This document shows positions 659 to 7,052 of a DNA stretch of 7,114 bases, piece after piece. Source of the stretch: a virus. Taxonomy: Duplodnaviria; Heunggongvirae; Uroviricota; Caudoviricetes. The position numbers were made by a program, and so were the translations under genes. A model generated the notes under the pieces. The model saw nothing but the letters and a program-made list of their open reading frames with translations, made no database searches and was not told the origin of the DNA. The number at the start of each line of letters is the position of its first letter. The first letter of the stretch is position 1. The stretch lies in the IMG/VR virus record IMGVR_UViG_3300019374_000122, positions 1 through 7,114 of that record; one strand, 5' to 3'.

Positions 659-1710
659 TTATTTCCCCACCAGTTCACTTACCTCTTTCACCGTCTGATT
701 AAATCGCTCTGACTCAAGTTCAACACCTAACGCCCGACGCCCCAGCGCCATTGCCGCTTTTATTGTGGAACCGGATCCCATAAGAAATCAGCAACCAGAT
801 CGCCTTGTCGACTACTGGCACTGATTATTTGCCGGAGCATATCCGCAGGCTTCTCACACGGATGTTTACCCGGGTAGAACTGAACGGGTTTATGCGTCCA
901 GACGTCGGTATAAGGCACGGAAACTGATACGGAGAAATAGCGCCGGAGAGTTTTAAACTCATCCAGCAATTCAGAATATTTGCGATTCAGTGAATCATAA
1001 GATGCCACCAGCTGGTGGTGTGGTTGTTCCAGTTGTTGTTCCTGAAATTTCTCTGCCGCTATACGGGAAAACAGTGCCTGCAACTTCCGGTAGTCAGCCT
1101 CATTCGGCAACTGCCACTGACTGGCACCAAACCAGTGGGAAACCATATTTTTCTTACCTGTGGCTTCGGCAATTTGTTTTGCCGTTATACCCAGTTCGGC
1201 ACGAGCATCCCTGAAATACGATATCAGCGGTGCCATTATGTGCTGTTTGAGTTCCCTTTCTTTTGCCGCATAGCCGTCACTTTTGCCGCGATATGGCCCC
1301 TGGTAATGTTCAGCAAACAGAACGCGCTCTGTGGCAGGAAAATATGCGCGCAGACTTTCTTTATTACACCCATTCCAACGTCCGGACGGCTTCGCCCAGA
1401 TGATATGGTTAAGCACGTTGAAACGTTCACGCATCATGATCTCAATATCAGATGCCAGGCGATGCCCACAGAACAGGTAAAGGCTTCCGGCAGGTTTCAA
1501 CACCCGCCAGAACTGGGCCAGACAGTGGTCCAGCCACTTAAGGTAATCTTCGTCCCCTTTCCACTGATTGTCCCAGCCGTTGGGTTTCACCTTGAAGTAC
1601 GGCGGATCGGTAACAATCAGGTCAATGGAATCATCAGGCAGGGACTGAATAAAATGCAGGCAATCAGCGTTGATTAAATCAACACTGTTTATTTTTACAG
1701 TATTTTTCAT
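659..1710 (-). pseudogene. Beta-class DNA methyltransferase (N6-adenine/N4-cytosine, DPPY motif), disrupted by a 1-nt frameshift just before the C-terminal FxGxG AdoMet-binding motif
   Basis: The ORF 760..1710 carries IVTDPPYF near the N-terminus and ends ...DLVADFLWDPVPQ*. A different frame from ATG 781..779 reads MGSGSTIKAAMALGRRALGVELESERFNQTVKEVSELVGK*, with stop at 661..659, which is the canonical motif I and C-terminus. A single missing base around 782-790 would restore one continuous ORF. Confidence 0.75.
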
Positions 1711-2332: not shown

Positions 2333-3274
2333 ATGAGTACAGAAAATAAGAATAAAACTAGGCGAGTGAGAGTTGGTTTTTTCACTGGTAATGGAAGCAA
2401 AAAAGATGGCACATCTGCTGCAAAACTAGCCTTTGAGCAAATGACCACAGCAGATACTGTAACTTTTCCAATAACTTACACAACAGACACCCCAAATCGA
2501 GGGTTAAAGTTAGTTATTCTTCAAAAAGATACCACACTGCAATGTTACTTTGGTTACGTATCGTGGAGAAGGGAATGCCTACTACCGTTCATCGAGGATG
2601 CTACAGGTAGTGAGAGAACAATTCCTTTAAATGATAAAGATTCTGTAGTTGAAAGAACATATTTTATCTATTACTACGAAACGGATTTATTAGCTATGAC
2701 CCTCAACCATATAGGGCCCAAAGTAAATGATCTGGCATTCATTTTGTATAACAAAACTGATTTAAAAAGCGTCACTTTTGAAGCCATTTGGAAACAAGAG
2801 AGCATGAAGGAACTGCTTGAGGACGGAAATATCCTACGTAGTTTCGATCTTATAGTTGCTGCTCCAAGAAACTTTAACAAAGCTAATTATAAGATTAAAA
2901 ACCCTTTAGCTAATGAAATTATTGACATGGTTGTTGGTATGGGCGGGTCGCATCTAAGATTAAATATGCGAGGTCGGATTCGCCCGAAAAAACAAGGTTT
3001 TAACTATCTAAAAACTTCTGTCACCGATGCTATTAAGGAACTACTTGAACTTTTTCCAAAAGGTTCTGGAGGTCTAAAAATTAAAAAAATTGATGTAACA
3101 GAGCCATCCAATAGAACGCCCAAAAGTCTACTTGACCAAGTATTGGTCAGTACAAAGACAATCATTGTCAAAAGCGGTTATCCATCCGATTCTGATATCA
3201 GAACGGCGATGATATCTGCTAAAATTGATAACGCGAACTATCTTGCACAGTATGAGCTCGCTAGCAGAGACTAA
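2333..3274 (+). CDS. Hypothetical soluble protein (313 aa), first gene of the AT-rich island; candidate sensor component of a phage-exclusion/abortive-infection module
   Basis: Long uninterrupted ORF in an AT-rich segment (about 38% GC in a 100-nt hand count at 2333-2432, against about 48% at 4201-4300 in the flank). No Walker A, DPPY, HNH or other motif that I recognise. Its stop is 22 nt from the RBS-led start of the membrane-protein gene. Confidence 0.8.
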   Translation: MSTENKNKTRRVRVGFFTGNGSKKDGTSAAKLAFEQMTTADTVTFPITYTTDTPNRGLKLVILQKDTTLQCYFGYVSWRRECLLPFIEDATGSERTIPLNDKDSVVERTYFIYYYETDLLAMTLNHIGPKVNDLAFILYNKTDLKSVTFEAIWKQESMKELLEDGNILRSFDLIVAAPRNFNKANYKIKNPLANEIIDMVVGMGGSHLRLNMRGRIRPKKQGFNYLKTSVTDAIKELLELFPKGSGGLKIKKIDVTEPSNRTPKSLLDQVLVSTKTIIVKSGYPSDSDIRTAMISAKIDNANYLAQYELASRD

Positions 3275-3295
3275 TAACCAAGCATGGAGGACACA

Positions 3296-3745
3296 ATGAG
3301 AGAATTAGCCACTTTTCTCTGGAAATGCGTCCTCTGGATTCTGTTGACCTATGCAGCGACAAAACTGTTTAAACCGATGAAGCATGCTGACGTACTCACA
3401 ACAGCGGGGGTGCTCTCGACTATATCAGGCATCCTGTTTGGTTTTGTTCTGGCTGCAATATCTATATTTAGTAGTGCAAACAGCGATAAGGAAGGAGCAA
3501 TTAATGCCCTTAAGCAAAACAACGTGTTACCAACTCTGGTAAATCGATTACTTTCAACAGGGTTAACTCTCATCGTCGCATGTATATTTCCATTGATAGC
3601 GATGTTTCTACCAGATGATGTTATTGTTGCGGGCAAACCTATTGATTTCCTATTCATACTGTTAGGCTTATCCTCCCTTATAATTTCGCTATATACCTTC
3701 GGAAGGTGTTGGTTAGTGTTACGAAAAATCTTCCCCCACTTGTGA
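3296..3745 (+). CDS. Small integral membrane protein (~149 aa, four predicted TM helices); candidate effector of the island
   Basis: GGAGG at 3286-3290 lies 5 nt upstream of ATG 3296; an alternative ATG at 3284 has no RBS. Four hydrophobic stretches: LATFLWKCVLWILLTYAATKLF, VLTTAGVLSTISGILFGFVLAAISIF, LPTLVNRLLSTGLTLIVACIFPLIAMFL, PIDFLFILLGLSSLIISLYTFGRCWLVL. Confidence 0.8.
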   Translation: MRELATFLWKCVLWILLTYAATKLFKPMKHADVLTTAGVLSTISGILFGFVLAAISIFSSANSDKEGAINALKQNNVLPTLVNRLLSTGLTLIVACIFPLIAMFLPDDVIVAGKPIDFLFILLGLSSLIISLYTFGRCWLVLRKIFPHL

Positions 3746-5160: not shown

Positions 5161-5970
5161 TCAATGAACGGTATCGAGCAGCTTTAACAGCTCAGTGAAT
5201 CGGGATTCGAAGAAATGCGGCTGCGTCTCGCGCGGATTTGCAGGACTGGTGATGTTCTTGCCGAACATGCAGCCTTTCGCCGTCAGCGACCAGAATTTTT
5301 TGATGTTGTTAATCGCTGTACGGCTGTATCGTTCGCGCTGTTCGACGATCCCCAGCTTCGCCATCTGGTGATATGCCTGATTAGCCGTCAGGCGGATACC
5401 ATACTGCTTCAGCAGTGCACTCAGTGACAGCGTGGGGCGGCTTGAGCCATCAGGCGCGTCAGCAGGAACATCAATGGCATAACGCGGTGCCAGATTCGGT
5501 AAGCCAACAGCCTCCTGGAGTTTCTGACAGGCCCCAAGCACAGATGAGTTAGACAGATTTAACTCCCGGCGCATAAAGTCCAGCAGAATCACGCCAGCCT
5601 GCATCTTGTCAGCAGCCTGTCCGGATAACTTTTCCGGCGCGCTGGTTACCATATCGAAAGTACGGATCACCTTCAGATGGAATGACGGGCTGATCCACAT
5701 TGCATAGGCATACACCAGTTCCTTACAGACATACGTTCCCCGTTCATTTCCCCCATGAATCACACTAACTGGGTCAACACCCAAATTCTGGGTGTTGATT
5801 AATTCATGAACAAGATCAACAGTTTGTTGGCTGGAAAGAAACTTTCCTGGCTCCTTGGTTCTGGCATTTGCACCAGATGCTACTGCTGCGCGATGCAGAT
5901 CGTTCAGGCTGTAACGCTCATAAGCATCACGACGAACTTCAATACCATCAATGACCATCAGATTATTCAT
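5161..5970 (-). CDS. KilA-N domain protein (Roi/antirepressor-like DNA-binding protein)
   Basis: N-terminus MNNLMVIDGIEVRRDAYERYSLNDLHRAAVASG... fits the KilA-N pattern. ATG 5970 is preceded by GAGGGG about 8 nt upstream. Confidence 0.7.
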   Translation of the reverse strand: MNNLMVIDGIEVRRDAYERYSLNDLHRAAVASGANARTKEPGKFLSSQQTVDLVHELINTQNLGVDPVSVIHGGNERGTYVCKELVYAYAMWISPSFHLKVIRTFDMVTSAPEKLSGQAADKMQAGVILLDFMRRELNLSNSSVLGACQKLQEAVGLPNLAPRYAIDVPADAPDGSSRPTLSLSALLKQYGIRLTANQAYHQMAKLGIVEQRERYSRTAINNIKKFWSLTAKGCMFGKNITSPANPRETQPHFFESRFTELLKLLDTVH

Positions 5971-5989: not shown

Positions 5990-6379
5990 TCAGGCAGCTG
6001 CACCCGCCGTTTTCTCGTACTTACTGATAGTGATCTCGACCTTCCCTTCCGGGATAACCGGTCCCCACTCCACCAGCATTCTTTTCACCTGACTGTCGTC
6101 TTCCCACACCCCCGCGTGGGTCAGGGCGTCAAACAGCGCCTTGTTATAGTTGTCCAGATCGCGGATCCTGTTATCCGGAGGAAACAACACGATCTCCACT
6201 GAAGCAGGTGCCGACGTTGGTTTCGGCAGACGACGTAACTGCTCAACTATTGCTGCGCACGCCGCGCTCTGGAATTTTCGCCCCGCCGCGCTTATCAGGC
6301 TCTTACCAGCAAACGCCCCTTTGTTGGGGTGTCGCCAGTACGTGTTCACGCTGGGCGGAAAAGGCAGGATCAGCTTCAT
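5990..6379 (-). CDS. rusA: Holliday junction resolvase RusA
   Basis: MKLILPFPPSVNTYWRH...RIRDLDNYNKALFDALTHAGVWEDDSQV matches the E. coli RusA pattern (PWPPSxNxYYRH...[28 protein letters not shown]), including the catalytic Asp cluster. Its start overlaps the upstream stop as ATGA. Confidence 0.9.
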   Translation of the reverse strand: MKLILPFPPSVNTYWRHPNKGAFAGKSLISAAGRKFQSAACAAIVEQLRRLPKPTSAPASVEIVLFPPDNRIRDLDNYNKALFDALTHAGVWEDDSQVKRMLVEWGPVIPEGKVEITISKYEKTAGAAA

Positions 6380-6702
6380 ACTTTCAGGCCCCTCTCATGT
6401 AACCAGTGGGTTGCACGCAGCCTTGCGTTTTCCTCACCGGCAAGCAGTGAGCGGATAATCCCGACCGCCTCGCTGTCGTCGTCCTTCACCGCGGTATGAA
6501 GCGTGATGCCCCGGGCCACGCCACGCTTTATCGTGATGACGCCTTTTTTCTCCAGTGCGCGAAGATGCTCCACCGCTGCATTCACTGAACGGTATCCCAG
6601 CATGGTTGCCACCTCCTGATTGGTTGGCGGGAAGCCACGTTCTTTCTGATAAGAAATCAGCATATCCAGCACCTGCTGCTGGCATTGAGTTAACGTCGTC
6701 AT
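6376..6702 (-). CDS. LexA N-terminal DNA-binding-domain homolog lacking the S24 peptidase domain (108 aa)
   Basis: From ATG 6702..6700: MTTLTQCQQQVLDMLISYQKERGFPPTNQEVATMLGYRSVNAAVEHLRALEKKGVITIKRGVARGITL aligns with E. coli LexA residues ~4-68 ([65 protein letters not shown]). No Ser/Lys protease domain follows. The start overlaps the upstream stop as TAATG. Confidence 0.8.
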   Translation of the reverse strand: MTTLTQCQQQVLDMLISYQKERGFPPTNQEVATMLGYRSVNAAVEHLRALEKKGVITIKRGVARGITLHTAVKDDDSEAVGIIRSLLAGEENARLRATHWLHERGLKV

Positions 6703-7052
6703 TAAGCCCCCACGTAATTCCCTGACAGATACCACTCATCACCCGATGCAGCGCGCTTGCTGCTTTTCCGTAAGCACCGCTCACGACGCGCAAGAAAATT
6801 GTTTCGCTCTTGCTGGGAGTGGCTTTCACGGAATGCCGCCATCCACACCGTTGCAGCACGACGGTATAAGCCCCTGGACTCCAGTTCTTCCGCCTGGCGG
6901 GTCAGGCACAAAATCTCCCGCGGGTCGTTAGTGCCGACATAGAAATTGCGCACAGGTCTGGTTTCACGAACTGGTTGCGGTTCCGCCTCCTGCGCTCTCT
7001 CAGTCAGGCGCGGGAAATGTCTGCGTGTATCCCCTTCACAACGGTGAGCCAC
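6702..7052 (-). CDS. PerC-family-like regulator domain; true start uncertain because the frame stays open to the window edge
   Basis: AEELESRGLYRRAATVWMAAF...ERNNFLARRERCL resembles the PerC/Pch pattern (AExLExxGxWRRAAxxW...RRxxCL). The track start is a GTG at 7052, and the same frame has no stop between 7053 and 7114. Confidence 0.55.
   Translation of the reverse strand: MAHRCEGDTRRHFPRLTERAQEAEPQPVRETRPVRNFYVGTNDPREILCLTRQAEELESRGLYRRAATVWMAAFRESHSQQERNNFLARRERCLRKSSKRAASGDEWYLSGNYVGA

Follow-up and report, generated by a model that had tools for sequence, protein, structure and literature searches.

The window, a stretch of 7,114 nucleotides from a Caudoviricetes record (IMGVR_UViG_3300019374_000122), contains on its minus strand a LexA-like gene at 6376..6702 (stop codon included), whose reading frame extends from an ATG at 6702 to a TGA at 6376-6378 and translates into a 108-aa protein, MTTLTQCQQQ...HERGLKV. 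This gene, which encodes a LexA-type DNA-binding domain (DBD) followed by a C-terminal hairpin, is delimited by the ORF, the PGAP CDS, the match to PHROG 362 and the pN/pS values, and an identical gene is annotated by PGAP as WP_000210170.1, ‘LexA family transcriptional regulator’. The ORF list also offers a longer reading from an alternative GTG start at 6735; the ATG is taken as the start since the homologues and the PGAP annotation both begin at MTTLT. The junction with the upstream PerC-like gene is a TAATG at 6700-6704, in which the PerC-like stop TAA (6702-6704) and the ATG (6700-6702) have one base in common, and a Shine-Dalgarno-like GGGGG is found at 6707-6711, 4 nt upstream of the ATG, with the coupling signals together covering 6702..6711 on the minus strand (direct reading and ORF table). 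At the other end, an ATGA (6376..6379, minus strand) joins the gene to rusA (5990-6379, RusA Pfam match), whose ATG (6377-6379) overlaps the TGA of the LexA-like gene. These two overlaps can be read directly from the sequence, and the first-pass annotation was right to place the gene in a nin-like operon.

The same-strand order of genes is PerC/yfdN-like, LexA-like, rusA, KilA-N, DUF968 and Q antiterminator. The PerC-like gene (yfdN, 164 aa in PGAP) begins past the right end of the window, which holds only part of it. In the near-identical complete prophage L008 of E. coli CFS3313, this block comes after the cI-like repressor, cro-like, CII-like and replication genes, and is followed by lysis and morphogenesis genes. 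This gene order assigns the LexA-like gene to a delayed-early, nin-equivalent operon, and the synteny of the nin region is retained in prophages of E. coli, Cronobacter, Klebsiella, Citrobacter and Salmonella. A consensus scan of the window sequence that precedes the gene revealed nothing resembling a promoter, and hence an own promoter was rejected and the gene looks to be operon-driven. Membership in a defence system was also rejected, since PADLOC gave no meaningful defence-system match for the gene or its neighbours.

Residues 1-69 (6496..6702, minus strand) constitute a LexA-type winged helix-turn-helix DBD, as judged by Pfam, phmmer against the PDB, AF2 modelling, Foldseek and pN/pS. Pfam LexA_DNA_bind (PF01726) matches residues 1-65 over its entire profile (1-65 of 65, E=2.9e-19, 69 bits against a cut-off of 23.7), and PHROG 362 (‘transcriptional repressor’) covers residues 1-108 on positions 1-106 of 106 (E=1.1e-59), and hence the protein belongs to both families. 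With phmmer against the PDB only LexA entries were retrieved, residues 2-69 and 2-90 aligning to E. coli LexA with E~1e-15, which upholds the earlier assignment to the LexA winged-helix family. BLASTP against E. coli LexA yielded 39/90 identities (43% over residues 1-90), using a full-length LexA sequence that coincides with the PDB alignment over residues 2-86, and the alignments obtained with phmmer and BLASTP end at LexA residue 86. AF2, run on an alignment of 16 family sequences, gave a model (mean pLDDT 83.9) that comprises three helices and a two-strand wing within residues 6-68 (helices 6-22, 28-35 and 40-52; strands 56-58 and 66-68), a disordered linker at 71-75 and two further helices, 75-88 and 93-103. 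Foldseek superimposed this model on DNA-bound LexA (3jso) with an rmsd of 1.0 Å over 67-68 residues at 50-51% identity; together with the complete PF01726 match, this confirms that the 108-aa product spans the whole LexA DBD.

In comparison with E. coli LexA (TIGR00498; 3jso, 1jhh), the phage protein shares the DBD, recognition-helix residues and a short flexible linker after the wing, but it has no S24 domain with Ser119/Lys156, no conserved cleavage site and no LexA-type dimer interface. It is not LexA, since the TIGR00498 equivalog profile is aligned over positions 1-91 of 203 only and its 70.8 bits fall below the cut-off of 110.95, no Peptidase_S24 match is obtained with Pfam in the 108-aa protein, which ends at residue 108, and a conserved cleavage site is missing. 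The protein is thus a stand-alone LexA-type winged-helix domain without the S24 protease and, as had been proposed, cannot autocleave; lacking both the catalytic Ser/Lys domain and a conserved Ala-Gly site, it cannot respond to RecA* and escapes RecA*-dependent inactivation. The DBD is followed by a flexible low-confidence linker at residues 70-75 (6478..6495, minus strand; pLDDT below 50 at 71-75), whose length and sequence vary in the family alignment.

The C-terminal 35-40 residues, initially described as a short unrelated tail, are in fact a family-specific conserved hairpin. This two-helix hairpin, proposed as a dimerisation module (residues 76-108, 6379..6477, minus strand; helices 75-88 and 93-103), is supported by the AF2 model (pLDDT ~89-90), by conservation and by pN/pS. 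The tail follows the family pattern EAVxxIRALLAxxxxAxxRAxxWLxxRG, with A97 and L101 invariant, which across genera reads E-A-V-x-x-(I/L)-R-A-L-L ... A-x-x-R-A-x-x-(W/F/Y)-L, and it is kept in prophages of seven enterobacterial genera (E. coli, Cronobacter, Klebsiella, Salmonella, Citrobacter, Enterobacter and Atlantibacter), down to ~40% identity. Among 78 distinct E. coli-type alleles, pN/pS amounts to 0.024 for residues 1-70 and 0.25 for residues 71-108; purifying selection acts on both modules and is strongest on the DBD. LexA dimerises through its C-terminal domain, and the absence of this domain makes the suggested heterodimerisation with host LexA unlikely. Most likely, by analogy, the hairpin replaces the S24 protease/dimerisation domain of LexA and itself supplies dimerisation, because a 30-residue helical hairpin with a conserved hydrophobic face is too small for stability by itself and because BlaI/MecI-like Rv1846c, YtrA-type GntR and MarR/MepR proteins similarly have a winged helix-turn-helix followed by C-terminal helices. 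Types such as BlaI/MecI, YtrA and MarR are the first full-length analogues to appear after LexA in Foldseek (ranks 13-47), but these matches are weak (E of at least 0.01, rmsd 8-12 Å) and, with no sequence relationship, provide an architectural analogy only. Other protease-less architectures of the LexA DBD were also found, among them proteins consisting of the DBD alone and single polypeptides in which two DBDs follow each other in tandem, and pairing of two DBDs is thus evidently achieved in several ways.

The recognition helix SVNAAVEHLRALEK (residues 39-52, 6547..6588, minus strand) was delineated from alignments to E. coli LexA and to the family. Residues S39, N41, A42, E44 and E45 are listed as DNA-binding in LexA (PMC13416735, citing Knegtel 1995), and a check of their conservation, recommended in the first-pass annotation, showed four of these five to be identical (S39, N41, A42 and E45), while E44 is replaced by V. 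Including A43 and H46, six positions of the helix are the same as in E. coli LexA, and this LexA-like character leads to the proposal that CTGT-type operators are bound; R28 and R7 differ from LexA too. In the family at large, S39 never changes and N41 only rarely, but positions 43-45 read AVE in the E. coli type, AAE in Salmonella, ATD in Cronobacter, VLL in Klebsiella and IAG in Citrobacter, whereas they are constant in host LexA, which suggests diverging operators. Canonical SOS-box specificity should hence not be assumed for every family member: judged from these helices, CTGT half-sites are plausibly still recognised by proteins of the E. coli and Salmonella types, but probably not by those of other lineages. 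The Citrobacter recognition helix, SVNTIAGHL, resembles that of Gram-positive LexA. An operator co-varying with the recognition helix was sought in a prophage carrying this variant (L170) and is unsupported, as neither Cheo-like GAAC-N4-GTTC boxes nor short palindromes and inverted repeats are enriched there; the Citrobacter prophage, whose recognition helix is the most divergent, also lacks an SOS box.

A search of the prophage for SOS-box-like sites, which had likewise been recommended, did reveal strong candidates. A perfect CTGT-N8-ACAG occurs once in the window, at 1685-1700, with ~0.1 expected by chance in 7.1 kb by our own arithmetic. The corresponding candidate box TACTGTAAAAATAAACAGTG (1683..1702), an uncertain target located at codons 3-9 of a late-region DNA methyltransferase gene, scores 22.4 bits with a position weight matrix (PWM) derived from 26 E. 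coli SOS boxes, as compared to a median training score of 20.0 bits, and base-shuffled copies of the window contain on average 0.06 matches. An even higher score of 26.7 bits is reached by TACTGTATATAAAAACAGTA at 27466-27485 of L008, in the linker-coding part of a gene for a cI-like repressor with HTH and S24 domains. A further phage SOS box, TACTGTATTTATGAACAGTG, lies at 10767-10786 of contig L064. In Cronobacter prophages, whose family member is 49% identical, a box of the same quality is found at the corresponding place in the cI-like gene, and Klebsiella prophages have one ahead of a dinI gene that lies two genes upstream. Among 80 viral contigs with the E. coli-type gene, the nearest relatives, three classes of boxes recur (cI linker, methylase start and the 150-bp gap between rusA and KilA-N); at least one box of at least 20 bits is present within 10 kb in 44 of the 80, and no such box is present in the flanks examined in about 36 of them. 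Lambda contains a single weak match of 15.5 bits. The LexA-like gene is found in 60 of the 67 contigs that have the box-bearing cI type and enough flank, which is not proof of a functional association, as the two loci are 3-6 kb apart and physical linkage confounds the count. Beside the methylase-start box and the cI-internal box no consensus promoter match was found. The numbers fit a phage group that would be heavily wired to LexA-type sites, and host LexA alone explains every box.

The main rival to a LexA mimic acting at SOS-type sites, possible although doubtful, is a regulator particular to the phage that recognises a non-SOS operator of its own, either a repressor or an activator, for which the LexA ancestry would be only historical and which would time a phage promoter in lytic growth or in the establishment of lysogeny. 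This explanation draws on gp6 of the Bacillus thuringiensis tectivirus GIL01, the sole characterised phage ‘truncated LexA’, which acts as an activator of the late promoter P3 and does so from a non-SOS site, away from LexA boxes (PMC6182141). Like the protein described here, gp6 is a stand-alone LexA winged helix without S24 encoded in an early-gene setting, and profile comparison by hhalign aligns the two over residues 3-67 with 96.4% probability and 33% identity. However, gp6 has 66 aa, ends at the wing and lacks the hairpin, whereas the LexA-like protein has 40 further conserved residues, and the recognition helix of gp6 is unlike that of LexA, with K38 being critical. With BLASTP no similarity between the two proteins is obtained; direct homology was hence rejected, the shared DBD being seen only by profile comparison, and gp6 and the present family were probably captured independently, each from its own host lineage. 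Such a regulator would also agree with the variable recognition helix, with the many gene-carrying loci that have no strong SOS box and with stand-alone LexA DBDs being common in unrelated phages. Against this speak the LexA-identical residues of the E. coli and Salmonella types, the strong constraint on the DBD, and the lack of an alternative conserved palindrome, including the Cheo-like boxes and inverted repeats that are not enriched in L170. The LexA-like family resides in lambdoid phages of Enterobacteriaceae that are controlled by Q, and late control in the present prophage is exerted by the Q antiterminator; that late genes are already served in this way likewise speaks against the rival.

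A second, improbable explanation is that the protein controls the phage DNA methyltransferases in the manner of a C protein, binding the box at the start of the late N6/N4 methylase gene together with or instead of host LexA, and thereby setting the timing or level of the methylase. The 20-mer found at codons 3-9 of the PF01555 methylase gene in the window is identical at the same place in Salmonella and in many E. coli prophages that carry the LexA-like gene, the L083 methylase allele retains a good box despite its changed sequence, and a gene for Dam, or for Dam and a C5 methylase, directly precedes the LexA-like gene in many phages. Yet this adjacency could merely mirror the gene order of the nin region, the window has no dam gene beside the LexA-like gene, its methylase gene is frameshifted and no promoter is recognisable next to the box, and contig L144 has the methylase box without a LexA-like gene.

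Highly improbable is an action through protein-protein contacts, in which the protein would be a decoy or inhibitor of RecA* or of host LexA, either as a heterodimer or with Ala-Gly at positions 88-89 serving as a pseudo-substrate. The incentive for it comes from HMMER and BLASTP alignments, in which residues 76-90 fall on the linker and cleavage region of LexA, with A88-G89-E90 on A84-G85-E86. However, other family members have AN, VG, ER, TR, DD or AE at the A88-G89 position, the segment is predicted by AF2 as helical and not as an extended strand, the dimerising C-terminal domain of LexA is absent from the phage protein and purifying selection is strongest on the DBD. A functional cleavage or pseudo-substrate site at A88-G89 was hence rejected, and the match is at most an evolutionary vestige of the LexA linker.

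The distribution of the family was addressed with HMMER over 1.84 billion cluster representatives and with a profile search of a set of 5.8 billion proteins, and the results matched. The proteins retrieved by both are 105-135 aa long, show 40-65% identity in alignments that include the tail as well as the DBD, and come from Citrobacter, Salmonella, Cronobacter, Klebsiella, Enterobacter, Atlantibacter, Kosakonia and Hafnia. Intact copies form clusters of 2527, 782 and 374 members and number thousands overall, and frameshifted or internally deleted alleles are scattered as single-member clusters. The surrounding 1.2-kb segment matches 2691 of 5426 complete E. coli genomes, about half. The notion of a functionless remnant of a captured lexA, suggested by the shorter length as compared to LexA and by the scattered defective alleles, is for practical purposes refuted by a pN/pS of 0.09 for the whole gene (78 distinct E. 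coli-type alleles), the abundance of intact copies and the full-length architecture conserved across genera; like the decoy model, it is poorly supported. The family is already annotated (PGAP, PHROG 362), and in the full-text literature no functional study of it was found; a survey of Stx phages has only the entry ‘pham 237, LexA family transcriptional regulator, pfam01726’, comprising 15 phages (PMC8136144).

The best explanation of the locus, preferred tentatively and with somewhat less than even confidence, is that the gene encodes a RecA-insensitive LexA mimic, expressed from the delayed-early operon and binding SOS-type operators. The product would be a small two-module transcription factor, with a LexA-type winged helix joined by a short flexible linker to the two-helix hairpin. 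From the order of the replication gene, PerC, LexA-like gene, rusA, KilA-N, DUF968 and Q, it would be made only after derepression or infection, and this operon position implies a timing at which host LexA would already be destroyed. The hairpin-mediated dimer would then stand in for LexA, as a damage-proof mimic bound to operators of the CTGT (SOS-box-like) type, and, acting as a repressor rather than as an activator, would re-impose repression on SOS-box sites of the phage, the host and co-resident prophages, presumably to the benefit of the phage. Candidate phage sites would be the methylase start, the box within the cI-like gene and, in relatives, the KilA-N promoter.

The principle of a protease-less mimic is supported by the free N-terminal domain of LexA, which is reported to keep some SOS-box binding and repression and is removed by the cell via ClpXP (PMC10584840). 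This fragment (residues 1-84) resembles the phage protein in being a DBD without the protease domain, but it exposes a ClpX degradation signal and gets removed, whereas the phage protein looks stable, ends in ...GLKV and adds the hairpin. A precedent for phage benefit is provided by GIL01 gp7, which keeps LexA-controlled genes repressed after damage, delaying or outcompeting a co-resident prophage (PMC9700832); the precedent is functional, as gp7 is a small LexA-binding protein and not a DNA-binding LexA homologue. Counting against the mimic are the E44V replacement, the changes at R28 and R7, the variable positions 43-45, the contigs without boxes and the behaviour of gp6. The uncleavable occupant of SOS boxes envisaged in the first-pass annotation is a plausible hypothesis, and the protein is probably a damage-proof LexA-like regulator and a widespread relative of the phage ‘truncated LexA’ gp6. 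A more far-reaching version, which we consider rather unlikely as a whole, is that induced lambdoid prophages deploy a RecA-proof, self-dimerising LexA mimic that would close the SOS regulon after the loss of LexA, shut off functions under LexA control in the host and in rival prophages, antirepressors and toxins among them, and act on the phage's own boxes in the cI linker, at the methylase start and at the KilA-N promoter.

If the protein is such a cleavage-proof mimic of LexA, it would represent a simple viral route to rewriting the host DNA-damage response after induction, as well as a second, independently evolved re-use of the LexA DBD by phages beside GIL01 gp6, and it would bear on prophage competition, toxin expression and SOS-driven mutagenesis under antibiotics. 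The gene is carried by medically relevant phages, namely Stx2c-converting and some Stx2a-converting phages, the Cdt-I phage and the Shigella serotype-converting phages SfII, SfIV and SfV. In the phage collection, every one of the 15 matching Stx2c-converting phage records contains the gene, and hence a mimic of this kind could modulate their induction and toxin output.

In most relatives (loci L005-L007 and L172-L173, and phage records), phage DNA methylase genes lie directly 5' of the LexA-DBD gene, with stop and start codons that overlap. These upstream methylases are Dam proteins (PF05869), with a Dam and a C5 methylase in Salmonella, and the window differs from most relatives in having PerC rather than a methylase directly upstream. 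In Klebsiella prophages that carry a family member (L002-L004), a dinI gene with an SOS box at 5385-5404 is located two genes upstream of it, scoring 27.1 bits on a weight matrix of 26 E. coli boxes, whose median training site scores 20.0, and hence a second SOS-related function is present in the same module.

Downstream, a gap of 150 bp separates rusA from the KilA-N gene in some relatives and holds a strong SOS box, TACTGTATTTATGAACAGTG (10767-10786 in L064; also L027, L051, L068 and L072), which suggests that the KilA-N gene is a LexA-controlled moron in these prophages. The equivalent gap in the window is 19 nt long and contains no SOS box. Further SOS boxes are located within coding sequences. 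A perfect box, TACTGTATATAAAAACAGTA (26.7 bits), occurs outside the window in the same prophage, at 27466-27485 of the near-identical complete prophage L008 from E. coli CFS3313; L005 also has a box, at 2190-2209. The L008 box lies in the linker-coding segment of a cI-like repressor gene with HTH and S24 domains; it is present in 80 of 80 contigs with the same cI type, and a Cronobacter prophage has one at the matching relative position in its cI-like gene. No promoter consensus was found adjoining this cI-linker box. Within the window, the DNA methyltransferase gene of the late region (760..1710, - strand) bears a consensus-grade box of 22.4 bits, TACTGTAAAAATAAACAGTG, over its codons 3-9 (1683-1702). 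Salmonella and many E. coli prophages have the identical 20-mer at the corresponding site; as with the cI-linker box, the scan found no promoter consensus next to it.

The same methyltransferase gene (659-1710, - strand) lacks one base at window position ~782 as compared to L008, with 99.99% identity elsewhere. Because this deletion shifts the frame at the C-terminus, two ORFs (760..1710 and 659..781) replace the single 350-aa product. At the left end, positions 1-137 are a 95.6% copy of 322-458, a segment of the more internal holin gene, and thus the window begins in a second, diverged holin fragment, which is missing from L008 and marks a junction formed by duplication or recombination. Two genes in opposite orientation (2333-3745, + strand) separate Q from the late genes; they encode a 313-aa protein with no assigned function (phrog_7651) and a membrane protein of 153 aa (phrog_8552). 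This slot, occupied by an 'ATP-dependent nuclease' in L001, appears to be an exchangeable site for moron or defence genes; PADLOC returned no match on it. A terminator-like hairpin followed by a T-run (GCCGCTGAGCGGT TTTTTTG; 2192-2204, - strand) is located downstream of the Q region and may serve as the late leader's terminator, of the tR' type.

Matches to the LexA-DBD gene in the phage collection include 15 'Stx2c-converting phage' records, with 97-100% identity in every one of these that was listed, and further carriers are some Stx2a phages, the Cdt-I phage, SfII, SfIV and SfV. In public data, six proteins (P0132, P0133, P0152, P0156, P0159 and P0163) contain two tandem LexA DNA-binding domains in one polypeptide without a protease domain, a further non-canonical architecture of this domain.
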